From Escherichia phage FH3: DNA of 64,000 nt. The translations under genes were made by a program, and so were the position numbers. Location: sequence record OR886155.1. One strand, written 5' to 3'. Under the pieces are notes generated by a model, which had not been told where the DNA came from, did not search any database, and worked only from the letters and a program-made list of their open reading frames with translations. Below, piece after piece: positions 10,312 through 41,760 of the stretch; the first letter of the stretch is position 1, and each line of letters starts with the position of its first letter.

Positions 10312-10317
10312 CCTTAA

Positions 10318-10720: not shown

Positions 10721-10756
10721 TATTTATACTCCCAAAAGATTGGCAAATTAATTTAT

Positions 10757-17933: not shown

Positions 17934-18170
17934 ATGAACATTAGACATCAATTTAATAAAGAGCACGCCGCCGCTTTGGCGGCTCTCAACCTTAACGGCA
18001 GTCTTGACGCAGCATTAGAGGCATTGAAAGAAAGACTCATGACAGAGATAGTTCAAACAGAACCTCATGAGAATAAGAAACGCGAAGATTGTTATCAAAA
18101 GTATAAAATGGTTGGTAGCTTAAAAGAGGTCATAAAAGCTGCTATCAATAGTGCAGGAGATGTTTCATAA
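17934..18170 (+). CDS. small protein between portal and scaffold
   Basis: ORF track, 78 aa. Confidence 0.3.
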   Translation: MNIRHQFNKEHAAALAALNLNGSLDAALEALKERLMTEIVQTEPHENKKREDCYQKYKMVGSLKEVIKAAINSAGDVS

Positions 18171-20346: not shown

Positions 20347-20870
20347 CAGTAGACAGTGTGACTGTTAGCCCTGCGTCTTTAGCAAGTCTAGAGACAGGGG
20401 CTACTCGGCAGTTCACTGCAAGCGCGGAGAAAAGTGATAGTTCTACCGAAACAACTGGCTTTACTTGGTCAGTGACAGGAGGTGGTTCTATCACTCAGTC
20501 GGGTTTGTATACTGCTCCGAGTGCGTCTCAATCCACTGATGTATCCATTACTGCAACTTTAGAAGGTGTTTCTGGTACGGCAACCATTTCCGAAATTGTT
20601 GCTCCTGCTCCTACTATTGTGAGTCGTGGGCCAATTACAGGTAAAGTAGGTGGTACTACCACTAACTTCAACACCATGTTTACTGTAACTAATTCTATTG
20701 CTGATGATTACACACTTGTTGTAACTCCCGCAGAAGCTGGTACAATAAGTGCTAATAATTCGTTAAAATTAGATGCTGCTGCAAGTGGCGAAGTTACTGT
20801 TCAAGCAAGTTTGACAGCCAACCCGTCTATCAATGCAACATGCACTTTTACTGGTGTAACACCTGCTTAA
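19288..20870 (+). CDS. major capsid protein long form with C-terminal Ig-like (BIG2-type) domain, predicted by -1 frameshift
   Basis: Downstream ORF has no ATG (GTG only) and encodes an Ig-like domain; predicted fusion about 527 aa. Confidence 0.5.
20328..20334 (+). promoter_or_regulatory. -1 programmed frameshift slippery heptamer G_GGA_AAG
   Basis: X_XXY_YYZ heptamer in capsid frame, 10 nt before the capsid stop; the -1 frame is open from 20268 and continues into ORF 20358-20870. Confidence 0.55.
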
Positions 20871-20971: not shown

Positions 20972-21484
20972 ATGGCAATGCCAGATTTCAGAGAAGCTTT
21001 TACCTATGATCCAAATACAGGGCATCTTTTCTGGTCTATGAGTAACATCTTTAATAAGCAGAAAGGACAACGTGCCGGGTGTATTGGCGACAGAGGTTAT
21101 CGTAAAGTGACTTTTAAAAAGAAATCATATTTAGAGCATAGGGTCATAGCTGAACTCTTTCTTCCTAAGGTAGAAGGGAAGGACTGTGTCAACCATAAGA
21201 ATGGAATAAAAGACGATAACAGGATTGAGAATCTAGAGTGGTGTACTCAACAAGAAAATTGTACACATGCTTTTGAAACAGGCCTCTCAACACCTAGGAG
21301 TCTTGAGGATAACCCTAATTCCAAACTCACTAAAGAGCAAGTTCTCTTTTGTTTGGAGAACTACAAACCGAGAGATAGAGAGTTTGGAGCTAGAGCCTTA
21401 GCTAGAAAGTTTGGGGTCTCTAAAAGCACAATATCTCTCATTACTAAAGGCGTAAACTGGAAGGAGGTTTATTATGATGCCTGA
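20972..21484 (+). CDS. HNH homing endonuclease
   Basis: HRVIAELFLPK...VNHKNGIKDDNRIENLEW motif; inserted between capsid and tail genes. Confidence 0.75.
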   Translation: MAMPDFREAFTYDPNTGHLFWSMSNIFNKQKGQRAGCIGDRGYRKVTFKKKSYLEHRVIAELFLPKVEGKDCVNHKNGIKDDNRIENLEWCTQQENCTHAFETGLSTPRSLEDNPNSKLTKEQVLFCLENYKPRDREFGARALARKFGVSKSTISLITKGVNWKEVYYDA

Positions 21485-22223
21485 CGTCCAATATCCCATC
21501 AATACCTATGGGTGGCTAAAGAAAGCCGTGGCCCTCTGGGCAGATAGGGACGATGACGAATTTGTTAATCAAATTCCAAACTTTATTAATTTTGCAGAGA
21601 AAGAGATTTATCGCAACTTACGTATCCCTCCTCTGGAAAAGGAAGTGTATCTGAGTATCAAGAATGGTATAGCATTCATCCCACCGGACTACTTGCAAGC
21701 TCAATGGATAATGAGAGCTAAAGATGGAGCAATATTCCAAGTAACTTCCCCAGAAGAGATAAGCTATCGTAAACAGCATGGCACAATTAACCCCTCTCAC
21801 TGGAATAATCAACCTGTTAATTTTGCTCGTTTCGGAAGTCGTTTCTTGTTCTATCCACTGATTGATGCTGATACCCCTGTTTACCCTGAAGATGGAAGTC
21901 CTGCTATTCCAGCAGAGAACTCTGTAATTCTAAGCTATTATGCAGATCCTCCGGAGTTTCACGCAGACGAAGATACTAGTGCAATACTTACGATTGCTCC
22001 AGAACTTCTTCTATACTTTACCCTTAGGCATGCATGTCTTTTTGTTCAGGATGATAACGGTGTTCAAAAATGGTCTGCGTTAGGTAAGGCTATTCTTGAT
22101 GAGATGGTTGAGCAAGATAAGAAACAGGAGTACTCAGGTTCTCCTATTGCGATACCCAACAACATGACCAGACTTCAGAGTAGCCTGCCAGATATTTATG
22201 GAATACGTACCTCTAGAGTATAA
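21474..22223 (+). CDS. virion structural protein (possible head-tail adaptor)
   Basis: Position between capsid and tail fibre genes; no specific motif recognised. Confidence 0.35.
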   Translation: MMPDVQYPINTYGWLKKAVALWADRDDDEFVNQIPNFINFAEKEIYRNLRIPPLEKEVYLSIKNGIAFIPPDYLQAQWIMRAKDGAIFQVTSPEEISYRKQHGTINPSHWNNQPVNFARFGSRFLFYPLIDADTPVYPEDGSPAIPAENSVILSYYADPPEFHADEDTSAILTIAPELLLYFTLRHACLFVQDDNGVQKWSALGKAILDEMVEQDKKQEYSGSPIAIPNNMTRLQSSLPDIYGIRTSRV

Positions 22224-22232
22224 GGAGATTTT

Positions 22233-25200
22233 ATGATCAGTTACAACAACTCTGCACCTAATGCGGTTAACAACGTAGGCCAATTCGGTGCTACAGAAGG
22301 CTCTATCGGTGCTTACAAGTCAGCAGCTGAATACGCAGCTGATTCCAAGTATTGGGCGATGCTTTCTCAAAAGAACTACAACAGCATTGATGAAATTCTT
22401 AAGGAAGTAGAAAGACTCCATGCAGAAGGTAGTTTATTAAAAGAAGATATTGAACAACTCAAATTTGATTTTGAAAACCAAAACCAAATGCTTCTTGGTC
22501 TTATTCAACAAACAGGCGAAGCTATTGACAACACTAATATTGCTATTGGCGAAGCTGATGCAGCAACAGATCGAGCCAACCAAGCAGTGCAAGATGTTCT
22601 TACTCAATTAGATAAGATTTCTAATATGTCTGTTGTTGCCACAACCCTTCCTCCGGGAGCACCTGCAACGGGGAGTTTTGATAATAGTACAGGTGTTTTC
22701 TCCTTTGGTATCCCTGAAGGTCAACCCGGTAAAGATGGGAAGGATGGTACAGATGGTACAATCTCTGATATTGGGGATGTAGCTATAAGCACTCCTGTAG
22801 CTGATGATTATGGGTTCTTTGTGGACAAAGACAACGGCGGTTTGTATCGAACTCCAATGAGTGAGATTGCTAATCTTATTCCAGCAGTGGTTAGTTTCAA
22901 CGGTCGTACTGGTCCTGTTGTTCCAGCTGCTGGAGACTACACAGTAAGTCAAGTTACTGGCGCAGCTGCTTCTGGTATTAACAACGATATTAACCAGATT
23001 CGCGGGTTAACCACTGCCTTATCTGTAGCTCAAGGCGGTACGGGTGGTAAGACACCGTACGAAGCTAGAACCAACCTCCAGCTGGAAAGGTTCACCCAGA
23101 ATGATGCTAACACTACTTCAATGAAAGCTGGTGGTGATGGAAGGATTCGTCTTACAGTTAGCAAGTCCGCTGAAGGCTCTGGGTGGGGTTGCTTTAATGA
23201 CGACACTGGAGCATACATTCCTCTCGGAGTAGGTCAAGGTGGTACGGGGGCAACAACGGTGGCTGGTGTCAAAGAGAATCTCGGTATCAACCGCATAATA
23301 CAAGGTGGTAGTTATAGCGATTTCCTTACAGCCAACGGTTCCAACCGCTTGCGTATCCAAGATAACGGTGCATGGGGCAGCAGCACTGGAACAGGTTGGG
23401 TACCGTTAGGGGTCGGGCAGGGTGGTACTGGTGCAACAACAGCAGCTGGAGCTCGAGCTAACCTAAACTTGAATAGGTTTGGGGAAGTAGGTTCTGAGAC
23501 TCAAGTGTTTTCTCCTAACGGTAGTAAGAAAATCATTATTACTAATGACCGATGGGGAGCCTATGACATTGCTGCTTCCAAATACCTCCCTTTAGGTATT
23601 GATCAAGGTGGTACTGGGGCAAATACTGCTGATGCAGCGCGTATGTCTCTTGTTGCTGCTAAGAGTGGAGACAACTCTGATATAACCTCGATGACTAACA
23701 AGGTTACTTTCACGCAGTCTCCAGTGATTCCTGATGCAGTAGCTAACAACGAACCAGTAGCTCTTGGTCAACTGTCTACTGAAACTACATTACTTGAAAC
23801 GAAGATTAACGAAGCTAAAGATGCTGCTGCTGCTGCTAATACTAATGCGGATAGTCGTGTACCAACAGCTCAGCTTTCTAATACGTCTAACGTAGCTCAA
23901 GGTGATGCACTAATTGGGGTCAAGGCTCCTTTCGCTGGCGCTGCGGCTCGTACTCAGCATGACATAAATGCACAATTCAGTAGCATTCTTGACTTTCTTG
24001 GTGATAAATACAATGGCACTACGGATGCTGCAAGTTCCTTTATTTCTGCCAACACGCTTCTACCTAAAAGTCGTGAGATCATTGTTCCAAGCGGGACATA
24101 CCTCCTCAATAGTAATGTAGAATGTTATGGTCGCCGTTTCGTATTTGAAGAACCAGTGACATTTACTGGTGCTGGTAAATTCTATGGTGCTATTGTAAAT
24201 CGCATTATGTCGGATGGGACAACTAAAGTTTCCCAATGGGCTAAGCCAGGAACTACCGAGAGGATGACCACATCTGCTGTTTTCGGTGATAACGGAGTGA
24301 CGTCAACCGGAATTCAGATTGGTGGGGCTGTGCCATATAACGGTGCTGATGGTATTAGAATGTTTACCGATGGCAGTTCTGGGTGGTTAGGTGTTCGTGC
24401 ATCTAAATGGCCTCACCCTACAGAAATGGCGATATATCCAAGTTCTAAATCCGGGTCATGTCAGACAATCTCAGGCAGCAATGCTGTAAAAATCCTGTCT
24501 GGTGCTAGCATTACATCTGAAGCGATCGGTAAACCTATTGCTATCTATGATGCACTTTATACTGTAGCATCCGTAACAGCAGATGGTTTTACTGTTAAAA
24601 ATATCAATGGGTCACCTGTTACTTGGGGATCAAATGCAACCCACTCGTACAGCTTGTGTTACTACCACGGCAGTGGTGTATGCAGTGTATCCGGCACTAC
24701 TGTAACCCGCATTAGTGGTGATCCGTTTGTGATTCCCGACGCATCAGTACCTCAGACAATGACTATTAATGGTGTCGACTACCGTGTAGTGGCTTTTACA
24801 GACCCTCAGCATGTTACCCTTAGTTCTGCTCCGGGGGATTCAGCATCAACAGAATATAAATTCTGGGGTACAGTTAACAACCTCAACAGTGCACTTCGGG
24901 TTCATCGTATCAATGATGCTGGCTTTGAGGAAAATATTAGTCTCATTGCCAATAATAGTGGATATTACGCATTGCACGCTGCTGCTAGTAACCCAGCGAA
25001 TGAGCAGTATCCACTCTACATTGGATCTGGTTGGGAAGATAACGGGCAGATGCGAAGAAGCATTATCTCCGCAGCCAATGGAGATGTAACCCTCGGTGGT
25101 AACTACGGGAACGGGCCGTTATATGTACCCTATAGCCAAACCTCTAACCCACAAATCATGCTGGACAACAGGAATGGCAACGCCACCGTTACAGTCTCTG

Positions 25201-25943
25201 GTGGATCTACACCGGATGCGTCGTTAACTATTAAGTCTAAAGGTGCAGGTAAGGTTGTGTTCCACTCCGAGGTAGGTGTTAACGCCGCGATGTATCCATA
25301 TATAGATAACATCTATTCGTGTGGTAAGTCTGGGAATAGGTGGTCACAGATATGGGCATCGAACGCTACTATCCAGACTTCTGATGGGACGACAAAAACC
25401 GAAGTTCAAGGATCCAATCTATCTACAGACTTTATTCTGGGCCTAAACCCTGTTTCTTACAAAAACATTGTTGGTGGGAATGTTGTAGAAGAGATTGAAG
25501 ATGGTGTAGAGGAGATTGAACGTCAGGTGGTAGAAAAGGTTGTTTCAACTGAAGAAGTCCACGAACGTGTTGTTGATGGAGATGAAGTCTATTACGTCCG
25601 TAAGTTCGTTGACAAGGAAGTAGAGCGTCCAGTGTTCCATGAGGTTGATCTGCGTGATGAGCTAGGTAATGTCATTGGAACAATCAAAACACCGTTGATG
25701 GAGAAAGTAACCGTTCCTAAAACTCGCCAAGTTATTACGGAAGTACCGGGTAAACGTACGCACTATGGATTCATCGCACAGGAAGTTAAGGATCTCGTAG
25801 ACAAGTTGGGAATCTCCGACTTCGGTGGGTACGTTGAAGGTGAGGACGGTAAGCTTGGTCTTCGCTACGGTGAGTTCATCTCTCCGATAGTGTCTTGCTT
25901 GCAGGATATTATCAAGCGACTGGAACTGCTAGAGAAAAAATAA
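22233..25943 (+). CDS. tail fibre protein with collagen-like segment and C-terminal intramolecular chaperone (peptidase S74-like)
   Basis: GQPGKDGKDGTDGT Gly-X-Y run; four to five LG(V/I)(G/D)QGGTGA repeats; C-terminus ...GFIAQEVKDLVDKLG...LRYGEFISPIVSCLQDII. Confidence 0.8.
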   Translation: MISYNNSAPNAVNNVGQFGATEGSIGAYKSAAEYAADSKYWAMLSQKNYNSIDEILKEVERLHAEGSLLKEDIEQLKFDFENQNQMLLGLIQQTGEAIDNTNIAIGEADAATDRANQAVQDVLTQLDKISNMSVVATTLPPGAPATGSFDNSTGVFSFGIPEGQPGKDGKDGTDGTISDIGDVAISTPVADDYGFFVDKDNGGLYRTPMSEIANLIPAVVSFNGRTGPVVPAAGDYTVSQVTGAAASGINNDINQIRGLTTALSVAQGGTGGKTPYEARTNLQLERFTQNDANTTSMKAGGDGRIRLTVSKSAEGSGWGCFNDDTGAYIPLGVGQGGTGATTVAGVKENLGINRIIQGGSYSDFLTANGSNRLRIQDNGAWGSSTGTGWVPLGVGQGGTGATTAAGARANLNLNRFGEVGSETQVFSPNGSKKIIITNDRWGAYDIAASKYLPLGIDQGGTGANTADAARMSLVAAKSGDNSDITSMTNKVTFTQSPVIPDAVANNEPVALGQLSTETTLLETKINEAKDAAAAANTNADSRVPTAQLSNTSNVAQGDALIGVKAPFAGAAARTQHDINAQFSSILDFLGDKYNGTTDAASSFISANTLLPKSREIIVPSGTYLLNSNVECYGRRFVFEEPVTFTGAGKFYGAIVNRIMSDGTTKVSQWAKPGTTERMTTSAVFGDNGVTSTGIQIGGAVPYNGADGIRMFTDGSSGWLGVRASKWPHPTEMAIYPSSKSGSCQTISGSNAVKILSGASITSEAIGKPIAIYDALYTVASVTADGFTVKNINGSPVTWGSNATHSYSLCYYHGSGVCSVSGTTVTRISGDPFVIPDASVPQTMTINGVDYRVVAFTDPQHVTLSSAPGDSASTEYKFWGTVNNLNSALRVHRINDAGFEENISLIANNSGYYALHAAASNPANEQYPLYIGSGWEDNGQMRRSIISAANGDVTLGGNYGNGPLYVPYSQTSNPQIMLDNRNGNATVTVSGGSTPDASLTIKSKGAGKVVFHSEVGVNAAMYPYIDNIYSCGKSGNRWSQIWASNATIQTSDGTTKTEVQGSNLSTDFILGLNPVSYKNIVGGNVVEEIEDGVEEIERQVVEKVVSTEEVHERVVDGDEVYYVRKFVDKEVERPVFHEVDLRDELGNVIGTIKTPLMEKVTVPKTRQVITEVPGKRTHYGFIAQEVKDLVDKLGISDFGGYVEGEDGKLGLRYGEFISPIVSCLQDIIKRLELLEKK

Positions 25944-30600: not shown

Positions 30601-30660
30601 AACAGTAATGCTGCTATCAATGGGTTAACGATAGAGTTTGCTGTTGGCGGACGGAGATAA
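27649..30660 (+). CDS. large tail protein with tandem Ig-like (BIG2-type) domains
   Basis: 1003 aa; repeated TxxVxPxxA...W(S/T)SSN...ATV...G.ATITA modules in the N-terminal third. Confidence 0.5.
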   Translation: MALYPIKSLGAVGVIADQAPTDLAPNAFTNAINARFVEQRVFKTGGNAPLSYVDEDKDLTPLSFISMPFDYYSAGNSFLIVGTNKKLYKLTDESLTDISRKVATVTKKASANIKIYPVVSRITPKESTISMNFNQTKSLEVTISPEDANNPELVWSVSNSSYGQITVDPTDSKKASLTSLNKEGNLVVTVQTKDESVSAQIAVNIIDGDSGIFLSQDTLTVRKGGNTTITAVTGKTPVSWSTTNGSIISITPNANTLTAVLVANGEGTATVTADNGTKTASCIVNVIPQIDSITLSQTDVTINRGVQYILTATVSPTNAPNKNITWTSSNPNIATVSGTSTEATITAITAGFTEITATTQEGNRTAVCTVRVDLAGRMMRTSLMAESSTEPDAPEVVEDVVVPESEEVLYFASPSSGIDTTGMSEGNSFYDYSNVDDMEGFARASLFATPLDSVTLDVVSASLDVGEEIVITATASPEGDYSYLWSVDKTGYVSTTSVTGKSIKLTALRKGEINITCSVSQMTQRDYDAFDDYPWYHAVISNCAVATTHYETPQVKEFESEHFTDLPGWGEQTVVDSDGNPSVKKFNWKCERVRSFNNRLFALNMRESNASGVTTNYPLRLRWSNFANENKAPTLWDDFAYDRLVTSDLASNIVGQTEALENGYAGYIDLADSNGSLIDILPLKDYLFVYTEFETYIGSPTNNTYQPLMFKKLFNDSGILAPECAVEVEGSHFVVTQNDVILHNGATKKSIASNRVKNMLINEICLVNPLATRVHLHQDKKEVWILYVGPGEPKESYACTKAAVWNYEFDTWSFRTIPYAQCIGLVDPPVLERGPIWADFQEITWDDPSIKELVWRKDATNFRQRITIVGSFLRGFYQVDVGALDYFYDRLNDAVIEKPLEMRLERTGIDFDNVTNEWNQKHVNRFRPQTTGSGTYTFEAGGSQFSNEYGHPHTSKTYTIGVDRHVSVRLNHPYLFYNVIDNDVNSNAAINGLTIEFAVGGRR

Positions 30661-31672
30661 CAACAAGGGGCTTCGTGCCCCTTTTATTGTTTTGGAGGAA
30701 CTTATGGGTGCAGGTGGTTTTCGTAAGAACACTGGTCGTAATAACACCACACTCCCGTACAACGTTGGGTTTCTCAATAATGTACAGGACACAGAAACAT
30801 ATAACGTAGCCGTATATGACGAGCTACAGAAAGTTAGTACAGCTACTAACCAAATGTTCCAAGCTATTGATGAGATTCACGATGAGATTGATGTTCGTAT
30901 CAAAGCTCTTCATGCGATGAATCTACAATTTGATGAGCTTGAGAATAGAGTTACTACAGAGATAGAGACAGCTATTGCAGATATCCAAACTCAAATGGGG
31001 AACTTATCCACTGAAGATATTTGGGATAATTCTGTTCAACCTCCTGTAAAATTAGAAAGCACTGTATCTGGCTTTAAAACTAGTATTGAAGGTAACACAA
31101 CTAAGATTCAAACGGTAGAAGGGATTGTTAACGACCAAGGTCAAGAGATCGCTTTAGTTCAGACAGAGATTCAAAATATCAACGGAAGCCTTTCTCAGTA
31201 TATGAAACTCTCTGAGTATGAAGCTACGTGGGGTGTTAACTCTACAGTCAACGGAAAATATGCTGGGGTCAAGCTAACTAACAACGGAACAAACAGTCAA
31301 TTCCAAGTAACAGCTAACAAATTTATTGTTGGTGATGGCAGCTCCGGTAACACTCCTTTTGTTTTTGAAAACGGTAGAGCGAAGATGGAGTTTGCTGACA
31401 TAAAGAATGTCAACATTACAACTGCTATGATTGCTGACGCTAGGATACAGTGGGCACAAATTGATAATGTCAACATCACAAACGCACAGATTCAGAGTTT
31501 GTCTGCTAATAAAATTACCGCTGGTTCTATGAGTGGTACAAACTGGAGATTGACTGTTGGTGGTGATTTTGTTATGGGTGGTACTGGTGGTTCTCAGCTA
31601 TGGATGAATGGGAACAGGATAGATTTTTATGATGGAAGTGGTACACTCCGTATCAGAATAGGGAGTTGGTAA
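30638..31672 (+). CDS. tail fibre-like structural protein
   Basis: Coiled-coil N-terminus then ...NITTAMIADARIQWAQIDNVNITNAQIQSL... repeats; true start may be the internal Met near 30704. Confidence 0.4.
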   Translation: MLLADGDNNKGLRAPFIVLEELMGAGGFRKNTGRNNTTLPYNVGFLNNVQDTETYNVAVYDELQKVSTATNQMFQAIDEIHDEIDVRIKALHAMNLQFDELENRVTTEIETAIADIQTQMGNLSTEDIWDNSVQPPVKLESTVSGFKTSIEGNTTKIQTVEGIVNDQGQEIALVQTEIQNINGSLSQYMKLSEYEATWGVNSTVNGKYAGVKLTNNGTNSQFQVTANKFIVGDGSSGNTPFVFENGRAKMEFADIKNVNITTAMIADARIQWAQIDNVNITNAQIQSLSANKITAGSMSGTNWRLTVGGDFVMGGTGGSQLWMNGNRIDFYDGSGTLRIRIGSW

Positions 31673-32717: not shown

Positions 32718-33500
32718 ATGGCAATTAGAATGGATATAGAAGAACTAGACCCGATGGTTCAACAGGCTTCAAAGAAGTATGGAATCCCAGCTGCTTTGAT
32801 TCATGCTGTAATCCAAAGAGAGTCTAGCGGACGTCCTAAGGTGGCTTCCGGAACTGGTCCTGTCGGTTTGATGCAGATCAGTAAAGGGTTAGCCAAAGAC
32901 TATGGTTACAAACTAGAAGATAGACTTGATCCAGCAAAGAATATCGACATGGGTGCTCGTTACATCAGAGACAACCTGAAAGCTTTTAATGGTGACGTTA
33001 AGAAGGCAATGGTCGGTTACTCAGAGGGAACTGGTGGTGCTAAGCAGATGTTCGCTGGTAAGAAAGGATTTACCCCTCAGGCTCTAGATTCAATGAACAA
33101 CAAACACTTTCTTCCTTTTTATGGTGATGCAGCTTCTCAGATTGCTAACCCTGTTGGAGCTTTGCAAGCTGTTCAACCAGTCAATCAGTTTAGTCCTGAC
33201 TTATTAGATAGAGAGAAGGCCGCACAAGCTCCGACTCAGGCAGAAATTGCTGCTTCTAAGACTGGTGCTTTAGGTGGCAATCCAGTAGAGTTTTACTCTG
33301 ATGAAGCACAAGAAGGGGAAGATCAGAAGCCTCAACAGAACTTTGGTAATGCAGTATTAGGGGTAGCTGCTATGCTTGCTGGTAAACCTCCTACTTCTCA
33401 AACAGTTCAGAGGGCAAGTGCACCACATGCGGCAGGTTCTCAGTACAGTCCACAAACACAAGCAGTGCTCAGACGTTTGGCTAGCATTGGTGTAAAGTAA
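32718..33500 (+). CDS. lytic transglycosylase (SLT domain), virion-associated
   Basis: ALIHAVIQRESSGRP...GLMQISKGLAKDYGY... catalytic E-S motif. Confidence 0.8.
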   Translation: MAIRMDIEELDPMVQQASKKYGIPAALIHAVIQRESSGRPKVASGTGPVGLMQISKGLAKDYGYKLEDRLDPAKNIDMGARYIRDNLKAFNGDVKKAMVGYSEGTGGAKQMFAGKKGFTPQALDSMNNKHFLPFYGDAASQIANPVGALQAVQPVNQFSPDLLDREKAAQAPTQAEIAASKTGALGGNPVEFYSDEAQEGEDQKPQQNFGNAVLGVAAMLAGKPPTSQTVQRASAPHAAGSQYSPQTQAVLRRLASIGVK

Positions 33501-33519
33501 TAATCTTTAAGGAGGACTT

Positions 33520-34572
33520 ATGTCTTTATTTGGAAAATCAGCTTCTAGCAAAATCACAGTGGCCCCTTCCTCTCAGGTTGATGCCCTGCTGAAGCAGATT
33601 GTTGCTAATGCTCAGAATATGCAGAACAACGATCCGGGATTCATCTCCCAACAACTGGCTGGGTTTAATGGCAACCAACAAGGTGCTCTGAATAACTTAG
33701 CAGCTTCTACTACTCAGAAGCAATTGGCTGATATGTACACACCTCGTACACAGCAAGGGTTGGACCAATTAAACTCTCTTGCACAGCAGTATCAGAATAT
33801 TGTCAACAGTGGTGGGGTTACAGCTGATGGTGTTAATAATTTTAGCAAAGGTTTGAACAATTCAGCTTTAGCTCAAGCTACTAGCAAAGCAGCTTCCAAC
33901 GTATCTCTCGGAAATGGTTCTGACTCAGGTTCTCTTCGTAGAGCTGCTGCTCAGGGTGCTGCTTTGAATGGTGCTAATACAAATCTATCTCGAACTATCA
34001 ATGGAAAGAATATGGGAATTAATGCCCTTCAACAAGACCAAAACTTCCAGAGAGGCTTACTTGGTGCTCAGTTGGGGTTAGCTGGACAGAACCTTAATCT
34101 TGGTGCACAAGGTGTTCAGGCAACCCAACAAGCTATCCAGAATCAACTCTTGGCTGGTAATTTACAACAGCGACAAGATCAAGCTCAAGCTGACATTAAT
34201 TGGCAGAATGCTATTGGCTCTAGGCAGTATGGGTGGAATCAGCTTAACAACCAGCTTAATGTATTAAACAGTGTAAGCCCAATGGCTGGGTACACAATTA
34301 AGAATGCCGCTCCGGGTATTAACACAGGACAGCAGATTCTCGGTGCTGGTATCACTGGATTAGGTATTGCAGGTCGTATGGGTGCTTTCTCTCCTAACCA
34401 ACAGACTCAGAATGCTTGGAGTTCCTATAACAACTCAGGTGGGCAATCTGGAATGGCTGGTCCTATGATTGGAGGTTCTAATCTTTCTCAACAGAAAGGT
34501 CAGTCTAACTGGTTATCCACAGCAGGTAGTAATATCTTAGGTGGTGTCTTAGGGGCATTCGGAGCAAACTAA
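33520..34572 (+). CDS. Q/N/G-rich virion protein (possible internal/ejection protein)
   Basis: Low-complexity Q/N/G/A composition; position in structural operon. Confidence 0.35.
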   Translation: MSLFGKSASSKITVAPSSQVDALLKQIVANAQNMQNNDPGFISQQLAGFNGNQQGALNNLAASTTQKQLADMYTPRTQQGLDQLNSLAQQYQNIVNSGGVTADGVNNFSKGLNNSALAQATSKAASNVSLGNGSDSGSLRRAAAQGAALNGANTNLSRTINGKNMGINALQQDQNFQRGLLGAQLGLAGQNLNLGAQGVQATQQAIQNQLLAGNLQQRQDQAQADINWQNAIGSRQYGWNQLNNQLNVLNSVSPMAGYTIKNAAPGINTGQQILGAGITGLGIAGRMGAFSPNQQTQNAWSSYNNSGGQSGMAGPMIGGSNLSQQKGQSNWLSTAGSNILGGVLGAFGAN

Positions 34573-34584
34573 AGGAGATTTAAT

Positions 34585-35553
34585 ATGGCTTTATTTGGAG
34601 GAGGGAATAGTAAAACTACTTCCCAAATGATTCGCCCTGAATACATTCAACAGTATATTGACCAGCTTAATAAGCAGATTGGTAATACCAGTTCAGGGGA
34701 TTATGTTTATCGAGATAATGTAGGGTTTAATAACAACCAGACGGAGGCACTTAATAACTTAGCACAATCTGGTGCTCTAGGAACTCTCTCACAGCAATAT
34801 ATGGATGCAGCAGGTCAAGGGTTAGGGTATCTGGATAATGCCTATAAAGGTTATCAGAGCCTCTCTGGACAAGGTGGGATTACTGGAGAACAGATCGGTG
34901 CTCTCGCTGGTCAACTGTATGATGACGATGCTGTGCAAGCAGCTATTACAGCTAATAATGAGCAGGTTCAACAGAACTTGGCACGTAATGCGCTTCCTCA
35001 GTTAGCTCAACAGTTTGCTGGTCAACAAGGCTCAGGTGCTCGTATGGCTAAGTCTTTTGCCCAAGGTGATGCTCTGAATCAGATGCAAGGGCAAGCAACA
35101 GACATTACCAATAGTGCCTATAACTCTGCTATTAGCCAAGCTGAAAGTATCCTCTCTGGTAATAGGCAGAATCAGGCAGCTGCTCTCTCAGGTCTTTCTA
35201 ATATTGGTTCTAACCTTTCTAACCTAGGTCAACAGGGTGCTAATTTGTCTCAACAGCAAATGATGAATCAATGGAATGCAGGGTTGCAGCAACAACAGCA
35301 ACAACAGAATGAATATGATAATGCCTACCAGAATGCTCAGAATGCAGCTAATTGGGGATGGCAGGATATCAACAACCAACTCGGTGCAGCAGGTGTACTT
35401 AACGGCGCTCTCGGACAAACTACAACTACTAAAACATCTGGTGGCAAAGGTGGTTTCCTTGGTGGAGCTATGAGTGGTGCAGCAGCAGGTTCTTCCTTTG
35501 GGCCTTGGGGTGCATTAGCTGGGGGTGTAATCGGTGGGTTGGCTAGTACTTAA
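34585..35553 (+). CDS. Q/N/G-rich virion protein, related in composition to the preceding gene
   Basis: N-terminus MALFGGGNSKT... parallels MSLFGKSASSK... of 33520-34572; poly-Q run. Confidence 0.35.
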   Translation: MALFGGGNSKTTSQMIRPEYIQQYIDQLNKQIGNTSSGDYVYRDNVGFNNNQTEALNNLAQSGALGTLSQQYMDAAGQGLGYLDNAYKGYQSLSGQGGITGEQIGALAGQLYDDDAVQAAITANNEQVQQNLARNALPQLAQQFAGQQGSGARMAKSFAQGDALNQMQGQATDITNSAYNSAISQAESILSGNRQNQAAALSGLSNIGSNLSNLGQQGANLSQQQMMNQWNAGLQQQQQQQNEYDNAYQNAQNAANWGWQDINNQLGAAGVLNGALGQTTTTKTSGGKGGFLGGAMSGAAAGSSFGPWGALAGGVIGGLAST

Positions 35554-35566
35554 TTAGGAGATAAAT

Positions 35567-37222
35567 ATGCAACAGACAACTTACGCTCAGGTTAGAAGTC
35601 GTGACCCGAGAAATACTTTCTATGGTGTTAATCCAGGAGCGGCTTCGGCCTCTCCTTATATGGCTAGACCGACTCAGACAGCAGACATTTCTATGTACCA
35701 ACGTCCTGCTGTACCTTCATCTCTTGCTGGTCTTATCTCTCAGGCAGAAGAAGATCAGAATGCTATGATTAATCCGGGATTCCAGCAACGCCTTATGGAA
35801 CAGCAGAATCAAGGAACCCCTACCAGTCTTCAGGGTATTGATATTGGAGCACCAGCCCCTGTAGCGGCTAATCCTAACCTATCCACTGATCAAGGTTTAC
35901 AAGATGCAGGGCTTATGCCTAGTGACCCTCTTCCGGTAACACCTCCCCCTAAACCACTAGAAGCCGGTCCTATGGAGTTTACTCCTTCTCAGGTGGAACA
36001 GGCACAAGGTGTGATTAACACTCTTGCTCAAGGACAAGACACTGGTGATGGGATGGCTGCTGCTACTCGTGCTAAAGATCAGGAACGTGTTAACAATGAT
36101 ATCTTGCAAGTTGCGAAAGCTAAAGACCCTTCTGAAGCTTGGAACAAACTACAGAAAGAACCGTTCTATCAGAACTCTAGTTTCTATACAGGTTTGATGG
36201 GTGTAGGTCTTTCAATCATGTCAGGTAAGTCTCCTATCGAAGCTTTCCAGATTGGTCAGGGAATGGCTAATCAGGATGAGACTAAGAAGCAACTGGAAGC
36301 TAACCGTGATGCCCTGATTGAACAAGGTTTCTCTCAAGACTCGATCGCAGCTGCTATTGCTAACGGAGATCCTTCTCTGCTGAAGATGAAAGCTGTGGAC
36401 CCTGCTCAGAAAGAAGCGTTGTATGCTGCTCGTGAAGAACGACAGAATGCTGAATGGGACAGACGTCAACAGATTCAAGAGCAGACTATGCGTGAGCGTG
36501 CTGAGGAAACTCGTCGAGCCGCTGAAGAAAGAGCTAATATGAACTTTGAACGTCAGAAAGAGTTAATTGGGTATCGTGATCAAGTTAAGGCTGAACGTGC
36601 TGAACAAGCTGCTCAGAGTTTTAACTTTAACCCGAAAGAAGTTCGTCTTGCTCAGAATACAGCTGAAGGTACGGTTGCTAAGCAGTGGGCAGAGAAAGGT
36701 GGTCTGTTTAACCAGTCCAACAAAGACTTGGATTTGGCTGATAAGGCTGTTAAGGATAAAGACTATCAGACAGCTCGTTCTGCTTACATGCAGGCTATCA
36801 TGAACTCCGCAAGGGCTGAAATCGGTGCTACTCGTTCTCTTACCGAAGAAGATTTGGGGCACTTTGCAGAAGACCCATCAATCTTCATTCGTGTTGGCAA
36901 CAAGTTTGCACTTAAATCTGGATGGCGTCCTACTGATTCTGCTCTTGCTTATGCTCGTAAGCAGGCTAACGTTGGTCACACCTCTGCAATGAAAGGTGTT
37001 GCTGATGCTAAGAGAGCTACGATTGAAGCTTACATCGGTTCTGGTATGGATAAGAAGAGAGCTACTGCATTGGTTAACCGTGCAATCCCTTCTGGCGGTT
37101 TCTACGATCCTCTAGGTGTTTTCTCTGAACAAGCGGAAGAAGCAGTTGGTGGTGCAGCAACCAATCCTAAGCTTAATGGTGCTTTATCGGCTGTAGAAGA
37201 TACTAGCTGGTTCACGCAATAA
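35567..37222 (+). CDS. virion protein (possible internal/ejection protein)
   Basis: 551 aa, in the same operon. Confidence 0.35.
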   Translation: MQQTTYAQVRSRDPRNTFYGVNPGAASASPYMARPTQTADISMYQRPAVPSSLAGLISQAEEDQNAMINPGFQQRLMEQQNQGTPTSLQGIDIGAPAPVAANPNLSTDQGLQDAGLMPSDPLPVTPPPKPLEAGPMEFTPSQVEQAQGVINTLAQGQDTGDGMAAATRAKDQERVNNDILQVAKAKDPSEAWNKLQKEPFYQNSSFYTGLMGVGLSIMSGKSPIEAFQIGQGMANQDETKKQLEANRDALIEQGFSQDSIAAAIANGDPSLLKMKAVDPAQKEALYAAREERQNAEWDRRQQIQEQTMRERAEETRRAAEERANMNFERQKELIGYRDQVKAERAEQAAQSFNFNPKEVRLAQNTAEGTVAKQWAEKGGLFNQSNKDLDLADKAVKDKDYQTARSAYMQAIMNSARAEIGATRSLTEEDLGHFAEDPSIFIRVGNKFALKSGWRPTDSALAYARKQANVGHTSAMKGVADAKRATIEAYIGSGMDKKRATALVNRAIPSGGFYDPLGVFSEQAEEAVGGAATNPKLNGALSAVEDTSWFTQ

Positions 37223-37289
37223 GACCTAAGTCCTGCCTTCTATAATGTATATAGGGGGTAGGACATTTTTATTTATAAAAGGAGACGTT

Positions 37290-40200
37290 ATGGCTAACAT
37301 TAAACCGTGGGAAGAAGCTTCCAAAGCTCCTGCGTATCTGAATGCCTCTCCGGAGCAACAAGCTCAAATGAGAGAACAATATAAGGCAGCAGGTGGCTCT
37401 ATTCCTGAGGAACAACCAGTAGCACAACCACAACAAGAAGAACGTGGTGCTATAGGTGAGTTTGCTCAAGGTGTGTCAAATGCTCTTCAATCTGGTGGTG
37501 CAAATATTGCAGCTAGTGCTGCTAAAGGTATTGGTGGTTTAGTTGAGATTGGTGAGAATCTAGCTGGAACACAAACTAGTTATGGTAAGCGTATCCAAGA
37601 GAACTCTCAGAACCTTCTGAAAGAACGTATGGATAAGATTGAGGATGGGATTGGTAAAACTGTTGGTCAGTATGCTGGCGTTGCTGGTGATATTGGTATG
37701 ACTGTTGCTAATCCATTGGCTGCTGCTGCTATCATCGCAGGTCGTGAGACAGGTCGTGCGTATGCAGACCAAACACCTGAAGAGGGAGAAGATAAATCTA
37801 TTCTAGATGCGGCCTTAGTTGGTGGTGCTAACTATGCGGCTCAGAGAATTCTTCCGGGCGCTGTTGGTACAGCTGAGTCCACACTTGGACGTATCGGTCA
37901 GAACGTTGCTAGTAACGCAGTGGCTGGTGCTAAAGGTGGCGCTCTTGTAGGTGCTGCTGAAGCTCAGAACAAGCATGGAGATGATACAACCTTTGCTAAT
38001 GTATTAGAGGGTGCTATCGAAGAAGGTGCTATGGGTGCTGCATTTGGTGGTGCAGTTGGTGGGGTTCATGGTTTGATTAGCCGTCCAGACTCTGCTGTCT
38101 TCAAGAATACTCCAGAGTATGCGAAGACTGATATTGCTGCTGATGACGAACTAATTCGCAGTGCTAAGAATATTGATGAATTGAAAGAAGCCTACTCTAA
38201 AGCTGAAACTGCTAACGCTGCTTCTGCTCTGAATCTTCTGGATGAGAATGGATTCCGTATTACAGATGCTGTTGCTGTAGATTCTCCTGCTGCTCAGCGT
38301 ATCCTCAATACTGACCAAGCTCGCGCTGAGAAAGCTGCTTCCGTTCAGAAAGAACATTCCAACATTCCGGGCCTTAACCCTTTAGCTTCTCCTGCTAAAA
38401 CTCGTGGTAAAGCATTCGCTGATAACGAGCACAACCAGAAGCAGGCTGTTGCTATGAAGGATGCAATGGCTGATTATACCAAAGACAACACGAAAGCTCT
38501 TACAGATGTTCTAGATAATCTAGACCGTGAATTAACATCTCTCCGAGCTTCTGGTGATTTTACTGGTAGTCCGATTGATATTAAGAATCGTACACAAGCT
38601 GACCGTGATTTCATTGATGCTTACAAGACTTTCTACAATGAAGCAAATCGATTCAAAGCTCGTGATGGTGAAGACTTTAATAACTTTGTAGAGAAAGCTG
38701 CTGAACTACAGAAGATGGCTGATAATGTTTCTCCAGAGATGAAGAAAGCTATCGGTGGGTTGAAGAAACTGAAAGGTATGCCTGAAGGTTTTAATCCTAT
38801 CCAAGATGCTTACACTCTGAACAATACAGCTAAGTTCATGAGCAATCAAGACCGTGGTTGGACTTCCCTGACTGATGATGGATTCCGTGAGGCTTCTTCA
38901 CCTAGTCTGGTAATGAATACTCTCGGTGCTGCTAAGTATGCTCTGAATCGCTTCTCTTCTCAGCGTGCTCGCTCTCAACGTGTTAAGCAACAAGAATCTA
39001 ACAGTGAAGCTATCCGCTCTCTTGCTCGTGGTGATTTGGAAGTTGCTCGTGCTAAATCTACTGCTGATGAAGCTCGTGCTAAGCTGGAAGAAGAACCAGT
39101 TGTTGATGACATTAAATTTAAGACGCAAAATGACGTGGAAACCGAACCGGTTCGGGAGTCTTCTTCTAGTACTGTGACAGAAGAAAATCCTCCTTCTTCT
39201 GCTCCTCAAGAAACTCCTCTTACAGCTCGTGATTTAGTTGCTCAAAGACGTGCTATCCGTCAGGCTGAACAGCGTCGTGCTGAAGAAGAGGCGTTAGCTG
39301 CTCAAGAAGCTCCGGTCGAACAAGCTCCACAGGCTGAACCTCTCCCTGCTCGCAACCCTTTAGAGGAGCGTCGTGCAATGGAACAGCAACGTGCTCAAGA
39401 AGAGGCCGCACAAGCTCCAGAACCAACCGTAGAGGAACCAACAGTCAAAGCTGAGCCATTACCTGCCCGTGCTCCTAAAGCTCCTAAGGAGGCTGTACAG
39501 GATGTTAAACCGGCAAGTGGTGTAGAACGTTTAGCTGCTATGTCTAGTGCTGCCCGTCAGGCTACTAAAGATCGTGCAGAACGTTTTGCTCGTTCTCTGT
39601 ACTCTAAGGCTGCTAAGGCTAAAGCTACCGCTGAAAACTTCTTGGCTTATAAAGGTGATCCTAAGGAATTGATGCGTCGTATTCGTCAGGAAGACAATGC
39701 TATCAACACTGAACGTCATGAAGAAATGGCTCGTAACCAGCTGGCTTCACAGCAAGGTATTGCTACTGCTAAGAACAACACTGTACGAACTAATTTTGCT
39801 GAATGGGTTAAGGAACGTGGTCTGCCAGAAGACATTGCTACTAAGGCATTACGTGCTGAAGAGAAAGGTTTAGGTGGGAACGTTACTAACTTGGATAGTC
39901 TGAAACGTCGTGCTGAAAGGTTGTATCAGAAGCAGCGTGAAGATGAGTTTGATAGATTGTATCAACAAGCTCTAGAAGAGAACAAAGCTTTCGATAATAA
40001 GAATGCTCCTAAACTGGTTGACCAGAAGAAAGAGCTTCAGTCTGAGATTGATGCTTTGATTGATTCAGAACCTTTACGTCCTGCTCAGAAAGATGCTATG
40101 CGCAAGTTGATGAATGACTTTGTAGATGGAAAGTTTAAATCTTCAGAGAAAGCTGGTAGGGAAGAGGCTTTGGAAGTTGGTCAGATGAAGGATATTTGGG

Positions 40201-41711
40201 ATGGGTTTATTAACACCTATAACAGAGAAGTGAATGCCTTCAACAAAGCCAACAAGAACTCTCAATACGAAGCTGCTGCTAAGCATTTACAGGCTCGTGA
40301 AGAACGTCTTGCTACCCTCAGGAAAAAGGCTCAGGCTCGTTCGGATGCTAAAGCTGCTGTTGAGAATGAACGTAAAACCCTAGAGGCTATTGCAGCTCAG
40401 AAGAGTGAGATTGAGAAGATGATGGAAGGTTTACCTAAACCTGTTCGTGAGGCTCAGGAATCTCGTACATTGAAACAGTTGGCTGCTCACCACGATAAGA
40501 ACTCTCCGGTTCCTCCAGAGAAGTTCCGTAGTTATATTGAACGTATTCACAACGCCGAGTCAGATTACCTTGATCGTCAGCGTCGTTTAACTGATGCAGA
40601 GGAAGATGCTCGTCAGGCTAAGTGGAATAAGATGTATGAGCAAGCGGAAGAGATGAACCGTAAGTTTGATGTGGACAAGAGAGTTAAGCGCAGTGAAGAG
40701 CTTAAAGCGGCCCAAGAGCGAGAGAATGACCTTATGGCAGTACAACGTCAACGTGATGACATTCATCGCCGTCTGATGCGTACTATGGAAGATAAGGGCA
40801 TATCTAGAGAGGATGCTGAAGCGTTTGCTGGTTCCTACATGGATAACCGTTATGCACTTCTCGAGAAGCCTATGACTCCAACTGAACATCAGAATGCTCG
40901 CTCTCGTATTGAGGCTGATGTTGAGAAGTTCGCTAAGAAGTACGAATCAATGACTCCTATCGAGAAAGAGATTGTTAAGGTTACTGGGGATACTGAAGGT
41001 AAGCTTGATAACTTGGATGCTGATACTAGGAAGGCTATTGAGGAGGCTCAGAAGGTTGACTCTGATATTAAGAAACTGCAAGAGGAAGAGTTGGAGATGG
41101 AGAAGATTCGTTCTGCTCTGCCTGACGATGAAAGATCTCAAGCAAATTCTGATATCTTGGAAAGCATTAAACAACAGGAAGAGGTCTTTGCTGATAAAGT
41201 AGAGAAAGCTTTCTTGAGTGGTAAAAGCTTGGATGAGTTGGCTAGTGTGGCTGAAGTTTTAGACAGGGTTCATGGTGCAGATAAGGCTGGTAACAACCGT
41301 CGCTTTGTACGTGCATTGCAGACTGCTGCTGAAAACAAGAAGAAGTATGGTGATAATCCAGTAGCTTGGTTTAGTGCTGATGATTATTCTGCTATTGCTA
41401 AACTTGGTGCTTCTTCCGCAGGTGGTAACAAATCCAGAGCACTGGAGAAGATCTTTGGTTCTACAGCTGAACAGGCTAAGAGTAAGTTGCTTGGTAGGGA
41501 TGATGTAGCGAAGATGAGACGTGTAATTGAAGAGAACCCTGATATTAAGATTCCTTCTTACAAGACAACGAACCGTACTGAGTACTTGAAGTTCTTGGAG
41601 AAGTTTAATGACGAAGGGAAGCCGAAGATTAAACGTGGCTCATTGTCAGAGAAGCTTGAACGCAGTAAGCGTCAATCGAGACTCCGTGTAAGAGTTCGAC
41701 CTAAGGAGTGA
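37290..41711 (+). CDS. very large coiled-coil virion protein (ejection protein or tape-measure-like)
   Basis: About 1470 aa from MANIKPWEEA (AAGGAG RBS); Gly/Ala-rich N-terminus then long charged helical region; listed start 37245 probably too early. Confidence 0.45.
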   Translation: MANIKPWEEASKAPAYLNASPEQQAQMREQYKAAGGSIPEEQPVAQPQQEERGAIGEFAQGVSNALQSGGANIAASAAKGIGGLVEIGENLAGTQTSYGKRIQENSQNLLKERMDKIEDGIGKTVGQYAGVAGDIGMTVANPLAAAAIIAGRETGRAYADQTPEEGEDKSILDAALVGGANYAAQRILPGAVGTAESTLGRIGQNVASNAVAGAKGGALVGAAEAQNKHGDDTTFANVLEGAIEEGAMGAAFGGAVGGVHGLISRPDSAVFKNTPEYAKTDIAADDELIRSAKNIDELKEAYSKAETANAASALNLLDENGFRITDAVAVDSPAAQRILNTDQARAEKAASVQKEHSNIPGLNPLASPAKTRGKAFADNEHNQKQAVAMKDAMADYTKDNTKALTDVLDNLDRELTSLRASGDFTGSPIDIKNRTQADRDFIDAYKTFYNEANRFKARDGEDFNNFVEKAAELQKMADNVSPEMKKAIGGLKKLKGMPEGFNPIQDAYTLNNTAKFMSNQDRGWTSLTDDGFREASSPSLVMNTLGAAKYALNRFSSQRARSQRVKQQESNSEAIRSLARGDLEVARAKSTADEARAKLEEEPVVDDIKFKTQNDVETEPVRESSSSTVTEENPPSSAPQETPLTARDLVAQRRAIRQAEQRRAEEEALAAQEAPVEQAPQAEPLPARNPLEERRAMEQQRAQEEAAQAPEPTVEEPTVKAEPLPARAPKAPKEAVQDVKPASGVERLAAMSSAARQATKDRAERFARSLYSKAAKAKATAENFLAYKGDPKELMRRIRQEDNAINTERHEEMARNQLASQQGIATAKNNTVRTNFAEWVKERGLPEDIATKALRAEEKGLGGNVTNLDSLKRRAERLYQKQREDEFDRLYQQALEENKAFDNKNAPKLVDQKKELQSEIDALIDSEPLRPAQKDAMRKLMNDFVDGKFKSSEKAGREEALEVGQMKDIWDGFINTYNREVNAFNKANKNSQYEAAAKHLQAREERLATLRKKAQARSDAKAAVENERKTLEAIAAQKSEIEKMMEGLPKPVREAQESRTLKQLAAHHDKNSPVPPEKFRSYIERIHNAESDYLDRQRRLTDAEEDARQAKWNKMYEQAEEMNRKFDVDKRVKRSEELKAAQERENDLMAVQRQRDDIHRRLMRTMEDKGISREDAEAFAGSYMDNRYALLEKPMTPTEHQNARSRIEADVEKFAKKYESMTPIEKEIVKVTGDTEGKLDNLDADTRKAIEEAQKVDSDIKKLQEEELEMEKIRSALPDDERSQANSDILESIKQQEEVFADKVEKAFLSGKSLDELASVAEVLDRVHGADKAGNNRRFVRALQTAAENKKKYGDNPVAWFSADDYSAIAKLGASSAGGNKSRALEKIFGSTAEQAKSKLLGRDDVAKMRRVIEENPDIKIPSYKTTNRTEYLKFLEKFNDEGKPKIKRGSLSEKLERSKRQSRLRVRVRPKE

Positions 41712-41719
41712 TAAAAGAA

Positions 41720-41760
41720 AAGCCCTCAAGGAGAAATCCAAGAGGGCTTTATTTGTTTCT
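41720..41760 (+). terminator. candidate terminator ending the plus-strand structural operon
   Basis: AAGCCCTC ... GAGGGCTT stem followed by TTATTTGTTT. Confidence 0.4.

Follow-up and report, generated by a model that had tools for sequence, protein, structure and literature searches.

A probable ejection-protein module at the end of the late operon of Escherichia phage FH3, a Kuravirus-type podophage

The window is the whole 64,000-nucleotide stretch of Escherichia phage FH3 that was analyzed (OR886155.1), and it comes from a phiEco32/SU10-like E. coli podophage (Kuravirus, Gordonclarkvirinae). Positions 32718-41711 very probably (probability about 0.92) form the module that encodes the ejection proteins (internal virion proteins) of a prolate podophage of the Kuravirus type. 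The status of gp21-24 as ejection proteins is real but already known, having been published for phage SU10 in 2014 and 2022. The features of the region are as follows.

32718..33500, + strand: SLT lytic transglycosylase, SU10 gp20 ortholog, a peptidoglycan-cleaving ejection protein (Pfam SLT, PHROG 12507, synteny)
33520..34572, + strand: 350-aa ejection protein rich in Q, N, G, and A, SU10 gp21 ortholog (95% identity, PHROG 4287)
34585..35553, + strand: 322-aa gp21 paralog, ortholog of SU10 gp22 ('DNA injection protein') (99% identity, PHROG 4287)
35567..37222, + strand: 551-aa all-alpha ejection protein, SU10 gp23 ortholog (96% identity, PHROG 12130 over its full length, AF2)
37230..37264, + strand: terminator-like hairpin with a 15-bp stem and a 5-nt loop, then a T-run, ATTTTTATTT (consensus scan, RNA fold)
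37290..41711, + strand: 1473-aa ejection protein, SU10 gp24 ortholog (98% identity over 1473 aa, ribosome-binding site)
41720..41758, both strands: bidirectional terminator stem-loop, AAGCCCTC-(14 nt)-GAGGGCTT, with T-runs on both strands (read from the sequence)

The FH3 portal protein corresponds over its full length to PDB 7z44_A of SU10 (E=0, 1679 bits), the nozzle protein corresponds over its full length to 7z47_G of SU10 (E=0, 2060 bits), and the adaptor protein matches the Pfam family SU10_adaptor (E=2e-28). These three matches place phage FH3 with the prolate C3 podovirus group. The sequence-only reading had held that the morphotype was not decidable from sequence. This is wrong, since a portal and a nozzle near-identical to solved SU10 structures indicate a prolate, short-tailed particle. 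At the DNA level the ejection-gene region is 99.7% identical to Escherichia phage 1-6af, with matches in 98 records of related phages.

The genes gp20-24 are the last five of the late operon, 3' of nozzle, needle, and gp19 (ORF map compared with the SU10 and Bas90 annotations). The SLT product comprises 260 aa and is encoded by a separate gene of the same module, directly upstream of gp21; it matches Pfam SLT (E=2e-24) and, over its full length, PHROG 12507 (E=5e-175). The four ORFs described earlier 3' of the SLT gene are all present on the + strand (33520-34572, 34585-35553, 35567-37222, and 37245-41711). The order and lengths of gp20-24 are as in SU10 (260, 350, 322, 551, and 1473 aa), and gp21, gp22, gp23, and gp24 align with their SU10 counterparts without gaps at 95%, 99%, 96%, and 98% identity, respectively. 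This identity of 95-99%, together with synteny with SU10 gp21-24, which are virion proteins there, supports the podovirus-type ejection apparatus that had been proposed from the sequence. The FH3 ejection proteins differ in only a few percent of residues from those described for SU10 (Khan Mirzaei et al. 2014, PMC4281155; Siborova et al. 2022, PMC9509320), and phiEco32 carries the same ejection-protein genes. In SU10 these genes also lie in the same setting of portal, adaptor, nozzle, and needle. The FH3 structural module differs from that of SU10 by an extra HNH ORF, and by one 1236-aa fibre gene where SU10 has gp12 and gp13.

Virion proteomics and electron microscopy, which had been suggested as checks, are published for SU10. 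Its gp20-24 were detected in virions by LC-MS/MS, with 116 peptides and 73% MS coverage for gp24 (PMC4281155); absence from purified virions, which had been named as counter-evidence, was thus examined in SU10, and the proteins are present. [quoted passage not shown] The SU10 reconstructions resolve no density for gp20-24 and no internal core stack, and the supplement names these proteins 'putative core proteins' (PMC9509320). This term, the lack of an observed channel density in SU10, and the Q/N-rich low complexity and low AF2 confidence, which suggest little fixed structure, are in line with a reading of gp21-24 as head-internal core or scaffold-like proteins that order the packaged DNA or block the portal, make no conduit, and escape passively with the DNA. 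Such a role is very improbable. A separate scaffolding protein gene is present at 18170-19246, and a co-travelling SLT enzyme makes sense only outside the capsid. Gly-rich hydrophobic segments and the absence of cysteine point to membrane insertion after transit, and in the short-tailed phages examined to date that infect Gram-negative bacteria, such proteins serve to span the envelope (PMC9509320; Pa223 paper).

gp21 and gp22: Both small proteins are dominated by the same four residues, with Q 13.7%, G 13.4%, N 12.9%, and A 12.6% in gp21, and G 14.9%, Q 14.9%, A 13.7%, and N 10.2% in gp22. Their N-termini are alike (MSLFGKSASSK and MALFGGGNSKTT), they share 31% identity over 274 residues (composition-adjusted E=2e-11), and both match PHROG 4287, 'DNA ejection protein', over their full length (E=5e-114 for gp21 and E=2e-108 for gp22). 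The alignment and the common PHROG indicate true paralogs, beyond mere compositional likeness, and thus bear out the earlier description of two compositionally related low-complexity proteins with similar N-termini. The C-terminal region of gp21 contains Gly-rich, uncharged hydrophobic segments at aa 272-291 (QILGAGITGLGIAGRMGAFS) and aa 331-349 (WLSTAGSNILGGVLGAFGA), and gp22 has a Gly-rich C-terminal tail (GGKGGFLGGAMSGAAAGSSFGPWGALAGGVIGGLAST). The AF2 model of gp21, obtained from a 25-sequence alignment, places long helices at residues 18-252, leaves the tail unstructured, and is unusable given its low confidence (pLDDT 45.6). Single-sequence searches of the PDB with gp21 and gp22 gave nothing significant.

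gp23: The AF2 model of the 551-aa protein is usable, unlike that of gp21, with a pLDDT of 69.2 but a pTM of only 0.38. Its first ~130 residues are of very low confidence and likely disordered, and a single helix of 72 residues spans aa 279-350. Conservation analysis shows an invariant core at about aa 186-272 with a moderately hydrophobic stretch, PFYQNSSFYTGLMGVGLSIMSGKSPIEAFQIG. A Foldseek search of the model against the PDB found no fold match (best E=0.64), and single-sequence and family-profile searches of the PDB gave nothing significant. The BFVD matches of the model are uncharacterized orthologs of 520-550 aa from other C3 podophages.

gp24: The last gene had been described as encoding a very large, charged helical protein of 1488 aa. 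The ORF is present and its product is charged, but the protein comprises 1473 aa from the ATG at 37290. This ATG has an AAGGAG ribosome-binding site at the right spacing, the ATG at 37245 has none and lies inside a hairpin loop, and both the PHROG profile and SU10 gp24 start at residue 16 of the 1488-aa translation; 37290 is therefore the true start. The hairpin at 37230-37264 sits between the gp23 stop and this start (dG -22.8 kcal/mol, z=-3.53), and none of 200 shuffles was as stable. It may possibly act as an attenuator, reducing the expression of gp24 compared with gp21-23. The stem-loop at 41720-41758 ends the late operon at the junction with convergent minus-strand genes. Its loop of more than 8 nt is outside the limit of the terminator scan, and the SU10 annotation carries a terminator at the same place.

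The composition of gp24 is 32.7% D+E+K+R and 14.4% Ala. Block composition shows a hydrophobic, Gly/Ala-rich stretch over the N-terminal ~265 residues, with a domain of this kind at aa ~50-265 (nt ~37437-38084), and a Pro/Glu/Ala-rich linker at residues ~600-745 (nt ~39087-39524). The C-terminal half is highly charged and helical and has a basic tail. The earlier label 'coiled-coil' holds in part: 349 of the 1473 residues are heptad-like in a crude test, compared with 85 ± 50 in shuffles, while the N-terminal ~265 residues and the linker at ~600-745 are otherwise composed. On this crude test the label is downgraded to 'partly heptad-like'. An exhaustive HMMER search with aa 1-560 gave only 12 clusters. 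The gp24 family thus extends to about 12 clusters (50% identity), none of them functionally annotated, and the N-terminal domain is the part conserved in distant homologs. In the full-length search, all relatives among the 120 matches listed are at least 96% identical. A single-sequence PDB search with gp24 gave nothing significant, and Pfam and PHROG searches, including three gp24 sub-segments at E up to 5, returned only the lineage's own PHROGs.

The large protein had alternatively been read as a tape-measure analogue, which would set the length of the tail or of a tail extension. Like many tape-measure proteins, gp24 contains hydrophobic segments rich in Gly, and it is also large, helical, and rich in Ala. 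Kuravirus tails lengthen from 19 to 41 nm on attachment (PMC4281155), and tape-measure proteins occur among the low-ranking, non-significant BFVD matches of the gp23 model (E>0.05). No Pfam or PHROG family of this kind is matched by gp23 or gp24. Neither a tube protein nor a chaperone frameshift pair is encoded in the neighbourhood, which is a nozzle/needle module. Tape-measure length scales at ~0.15 nm per residue, as in the textbook case of lambda gpH. At this ratio 1473 aa would correspond to ~220 nm, compared with SU10 tails of 19 nm when free and 41 nm when infecting (PMC4281155). SU10 is a podovirus with a solved tail, in which the 28-nm extension consists of nozzle and short-fibre proteins, and its gp24 leaves the particle on genome release together with gp20-23 (PMC9509320). 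The suggestion is rejected on the short tail, the missing family match and tube/chaperone context, and the length mismatch. With the podovirus context, the length, and the loss on genome release taken together, a tape-measure role for gp24 is effectively refuted.

As ejection proteins, gp20-24 would be packaged in the head with the DNA and would exit as the tail needle comes off and the genome leaves the particle, as shown in the near-identical SU10. They would pass the portal-nozzle channel largely unfolded. Cysteine is absent from all 2956 residues of gp20-24, compared with 45 in 6274 residues of other structural proteins and 57 in 3522 residues of sampled minus-strand genes, and this absence fits such a transit. 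The SLT enzyme (gp20) would open the peptidoglycan, and gp21-24 would lengthen the nozzle into a trans-envelope conduit. Gly-rich hydrophobic segments occur in gp21, gp22, and the N-terminus of gp24. The most likely division of roles, by gene order, size, and composition and by analogy with T7 gp14/15/16 and Pa223 gp56/54/53, assigns gp21 and gp22 to the outer membrane, gp23 to the periplasm, and gp24 to the inner membrane. gp21 and gp22, perhaps joined in a hetero-oligomer, may enter the outer membrane with their Gly-rich C-terminal tails, gp23 would make a periplasmic tube, and gp24 would enter the inner membrane with the conserved Gly/Ala-rich domain at its N-terminus.

LUZ24 and Pa223: The structural module of Bruynoghevirus is related to that of FH3 (portal E=1e-56, nozzle E=5e-29, with 9nwm/9nwi chains). 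LUZ24 gp53, gp51, and gp50 correspond to the Pa223 ejection proteins gp56, gp54, and gp53, and this type of trio is assigned to an outer-membrane channel, a periplasmic tunnel, and an inner-membrane complex (Pa223 paper). LUZ24 and FH3 share the order of nozzle, needle, a small protein rich in G, Q, N, and A whose C-terminal tail is Gly-rich, a ~500-aa Ala-rich protein, and a >1000-aa protein with a Gly/Ala-rich N-terminus. The LUZ24 trio (313, 505, and 1055 aa) is Cys-free like FH3 gp20-24, and the same small, mid, and large layout is found in Cronobacter phage A24 (410/.../553/1306 aa). FH3 differs from LUZ24 in carrying a pair of small paralogs and a stand-alone SLT gene. In LUZ24 a further Gly-rich protein of 126 aa is present, and no transglycosylase is annotated in that stretch. 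In hhalign comparisons with LUZ24 gp53, gp51, and gp50 using block-shuffle controls, gp50 alone scored above the controls, and modestly so; the FH3 small and mid proteins gave nothing above composition with gp53 and gp51. The gp24 family has a weak match to gp50 (E=2.5e-5, probability 75%). When restricted to the gp24 N-terminus, the match is marginal (score 27.0, E=0.007, probability 5.5%), with composition-preserving shuffles at 14.5 ± 3.1 and a maximum of 22.2.

T7 and P22: T7 gp14/gp15/gp16 and P22 gp7/gp20/gp16 follow the same outline as the Kuravirus set, in which proteins from inside the head exit before or together with the DNA and span the Gram-negative envelope. The systems are also alike in gene sizes that run from small to mid to large and in an associated lytic transglycosylase activity. 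T7 gp16 carries an SLT domain as the N-terminus of the largest ejection protein. In the Kuravirus set, by contrast, the 260-aa SLT protein has its own gene and gp24 does not match SLT, and there are five ejection proteins compared with three in T7 and P22. No similarity of gp21-24 to T7 gp14/15/16, P22 gp7/20/16, DEV gp72/73, or Pa223 gp54 was found with Pfam, PHROGs, and PDB sequence and profile searches, the comparison covering gp23 by fold and sequence, and gp21, gp22, and gp24 by sequence.

Some of the proteins, and gp24 above all, may instead be cargo that is ejected to act in the cytoplasm, for example in genome pulling, DNA-end protection, or host takeover and anti-defence. Parallels for ejected cargo are the vRNAP of N4 and DEV and the cargo proteins of crAss001. 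Just the N-terminal ~265 aa of gp24 look membrane-active, the other ~1200 aa are highly charged, with up to 50% DEKR per 50-aa block, and the strongly basic C-terminal tail, RSKRQSRLRVRVRPKE, could bind nucleic acid. The largest DEV ejection protein doubles as an RNA polymerase (Pa223 paper), and the last 50-70% of the SU10 genome requires a mechanism other than capsid pressure (PMC9509320). Against this, Pfam and PHROGs detect no enzymatic or nucleic-acid-binding domain in any segment, and the gp24 family is confined to the few clusters given above, none with an annotated function. Cytoplasmic cargo is rather unlikely as the explanation, and it is compatible with the envelope-spanning ejection module and not exclusive of it.

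As a discovery the module carries little weight, given that about a hundred near-identical phage genomes carry the gp20-24 genes. Its use is practical: in database records gp23 and gp24 are mostly still 'hypothetical', or are misleadingly labelled, for example as 'TolA', 'erythrocyte binding protein', 'liver stage antigen', or 'nuclear pore complex', and some records still annotate the 1488-aa start of gp24. Kuraviruses find use in therapy and as model phages of E. coli (BASEL collection). It is conceivable, though doubtful, that the Kuravirus set crosses the envelope in a structurally distinct way, with no recognisable relation to the T7 or P22 ejectosomes. gp21 and gp22 would form a hetero-oligomeric membrane pore below the nozzle and the lineage-specific gp23 a periplasmic tube. 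gp24 would be held in the inner membrane by an N-terminal anchor shared with Bruynoghevirus gp50/Pa223 gp53, and its charged remainder of ~1200 residues would act in the cytoplasm, for example in genome pulling.

The 29-kb plus-strand late operon of FH3 closes with a compact series of five genes, gp20 to gp24 (named after their orthologs in phage SU10), which very probably (about 0.92) encode an ejection-protein set. The features of this region are as follows.

Features at the end of the FH3 late operon
32718-33500, + strand: SLT transglycosylase, gp20, 260 aa (Pfam SLT, E=2e-24)
33520-34572, + strand: 350-aa ORF, gp21 (ORF map)
34585-35553, + strand: 322-aa ORF, gp22 (ORF map)
35567-37222, + strand: 551-aa ORF, gp23 (ORF map)
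37230-37264, + strand: terminator-like hairpin with a 15-bp stem and a trailing T-run, located between the stop codon of gp23 and the start of gp24 (dG -22.8 kcal/mol, z=-3.5)
37290-41711, + strand: gp24, 1473 aa (ribosome-binding site, PHROG profile start, annotated start in relatives)
41720-41758: stem-loop with T-runs on both sides, ending the operon and facing convergent minus-strand genes

A strong AGGAG-type ribosome-binding site precedes gp20, gp21, gp22, gp23, and the ATG at 37290. None lies upstream of the ATG at 37245, where the sequence-only reading began a protein of 1488 aa, and this spurious ATG sits inside the loop of the 37230-37264 hairpin. Measured against the 1488-aa translation, the PHROG profile of gp24 starts at residue 16, as do nearly all annotated gp24 proteins of relatives among the matches listed. 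Thus, gp24 comprises 1473 aa at 37290-41711. The longer form is used in a few public ortholog records among the matches listed. The hairpin is a candidate attenuator, which may reduce gp24 expression relative to the other ejection proteins or set the stoichiometry of gp24.

Over 8.2 kb, the region shares 99.7% identity with Escherichia phage 1-6af, and about 40 further E. coli and Shigella phages, all of the phiEco32/SU10 group, reach at least 95%. The record of SU10 (Gordonclarkvirinae, Kuravirus) has the gp20 transglycosylase and gp21-gp24 of 350, 322, 551, and 1473 aa in identical order, to which the FH3 gp21, gp22, gp23, and gp24 are 95%, 99%, 96%, and 98% identical. Along their whole length, the portal and the 1003-aa nozzle align with chains 7z44_A and 7z47_G of the SU10 cryo-EM structures, and the adaptor matches Pfam SU10_adaptor. 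Because these three proteins match SU10, the morphotype, which the sequence-only reading considered undecidable, follows from the sequence: FH3 is a prolate C3 short-tailed phage.

The sequence-only reading proposed a podovirus-type ejection apparatus, to be checked by virion proteomics and electron microscopy and contradicted by absence from purified virions. Both kinds of study already exist for SU10, whose orthologs are 95-99% identical, and they favour ejection. According to Khan Mirzaei et al. (PMC4281155), LC-MS/MS of purified SU10 virions detected all of gp20, gp21, gp22, gp23, and gp24, with gp24 represented by 116 peptides at 73% coverage. Siborova et al. (PMC9509320) compared SU10 virions with genome-release intermediates: gp20-24 are packaged in the head and leave with the genome once the nozzle has formed and the needle has gone, the tail needle (gp18) and the ejection proteins being lost in one step. 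The alternative that the large protein is a tape-measure analogue is wrong. The SU10 maps hold no density assignable to gp20-24, and the trans-periplasmic channel proposed for them is not seen.

Both small proteins are rich in Q, G, N, and A, with the N-termini MSLFG (gp21) and MALFG (gp22). Their proposed likeness goes beyond composition, as they are true paralogs with 31% identity over 274 aligned residues (composition-adjusted E=2e-11), and PHROG 4287 'DNA ejection protein' matches both end to end. Composition and alignment give each a Gly-rich, hydrophobic C-terminal tail without charge. In the large protein, gp24, charged residues make up 33% and Ala 14%, distributed non-uniformly: there is a Gly/Ala-rich segment containing hydrophobic stretches (residues ~50-265) and a linker rich in Pro, Glu, and Ala (~600-745), and charged residues rise to 40-50% in the C-terminal half, which has a basic tail at its end. 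Its description as helical and charged is fair, and that as coiled-coil is partly supported, with heptad-like windows covering 349 of 1473 residues against 85 +/- 50 in shuffles by a crude test.

Cysteine is absent from gp20-24 (32718-41711, + strand; 0/2956 residues). Other FH3 structural proteins contain 45 in 6274 residues (0.7%), and the sampled minus-strand early and middle proteins 57 in 3522 (1.6%). The structural-protein frequency predicts about 21 for gp20-24, and the Poisson probability of zero is ~1e-9. The available portions of the literature on these proteins contain no mention of this absence, which would fit threading through a narrow channel and refolding in an oxidising periplasm.

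No Pfam family matches gp21-24, PDB searches with the four sequences and with a gp23-family profile found nothing significant, and PHROGs gave only families of their own lineage, also with gp24 in three parts at a relaxed threshold. The gp23 family comprises 88 clusters with identity down to ~38%, all from kuravirus-like phages, and its invariant core (aa ~186-272) includes a moderately hydrophobic stretch. The AF2 model of gp23 (pLDDT 69) is all-alpha with a 72-residue helix and low confidence in the first 130 residues. It has no significant structural neighbour in the PDB, and matches only uncharacterized 520-550-aa proteins of other C3 podophages (GAP52, Vp_R1, and an Aeromonas phage). The gp21 model (pLDDT 45.6) is unusable. 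When gp24 residues 1-560 were compared exhaustively by HMMER with 1.84 billion representatives, only 12 clusters emerged, with large full-length members (1086-1754 aa) and otherwise short fragments; conservation lies in the Gly/Ala-rich N-terminal domain.

Public gp24 orthologs among the matches listed are named 'TolA protein', 'erythrocyte binding protein 1', 'putative liver stage antigen', and 'type 3 domain protein precursor', and the SU10 supplement has 'Nuclear Pore Complex'. These misleading names probably stem from low-complexity charged-repeat matches. Within the genus, gp23 (35567-37222) occurs as two sequence types, one at least 92% identical to the FH3 protein and a second, large group (including YF01, MN03, and CHD5UKE1) ~88% identical. 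Since gp24 (37290-41711) of the ~88% phages among the matches listed is 99% identical, the pattern hints at recombination (mosaicism) within the ejection module.

Bruynoghevirus portal and nozzle are homologous to those of FH3, and LUZ24 has the same order of small, mid, and large protein after nozzle and needle. The small protein (313 aa) is G/L/A/N/Q-rich with a poly-Gly and Gly-rich C-terminal tail, the mid protein (505 aa) is Ala-rich, and the large protein (1055 aa) has a Gly/Ala-rich N-terminus. LUZ24 gp50-gp53 (7038-13199, - strand, of locus L003) are Cys-free like gp20-24. The gp24 family aligns with LUZ24 gp50 in the N-terminal domain (hhalign E=2.5e-5, probability 75%), and the N-termini alone score 27 against 14.5 +/- 3.1 (maximum 22) in composition-preserving shuffles, which is suggestive of a relationship but not proof. 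The neighbours gp21/22 and gp23 give no signal above composition against their LUZ24 counterparts. The late operon of Cronobacter phage A24 (Grimontviridae) likewise closes with genes for 410, 280, 180, 553, and 1306 aa.

Elsewhere in the structural module, a 170-aa ORF with 5 Cys (20972-21484, +; Pfam HNH_3, E=6e-13) lies between a capsid-decoration gene with an Ig domain (20358-20870) and the adaptor gene of SU10 type (21474-22223), where SU10 has only ~100 nt; it looks like a homing-endonuclease insertion into the operon. A single 1236-aa fibre gene (22233-25943, +), whose C-terminal part weakly matches endosialidase and the Peptidase_S74 chaperone, replaces the two SU10 long-tail-fibre genes, gp12 (786 aa) and gp13 (723 aa), and suggests a swapped, possibly capsule-specific, receptor-binding module. 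The mechanical tail-needle ORF (30638-31672, +; TTG start, 344 aa) probably starts near 30704, because its residue 23 is where both the PHROG profile and the 322-aa SU10 gp18 start.

A Pa223 preprint assigns the equivalent Bruynoghevirus trio to an outer-membrane channel, a periplasmic tunnel, and an inner-membrane complex, partly on the basis of the mid-size protein resolved as a ring bound to the portal. In FH3, the SLT enzyme would open the murein, and gp21 and gp22, possibly as a hetero-oligomer since the duplication is conserved, would use their Gly-rich tails to insert, probably in the outer membrane. The periplasmic tube would be gp23. The N-terminal domain of gp24 would act as an inner-membrane anchor, its long charged remainder lining the conduit or having a cytoplasmic role. 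These specific roles of gp21/22, gp23, and gp24 are tentative, with the odds somewhat against them. The ejection module itself is already known in this phage genus, which is well sampled.
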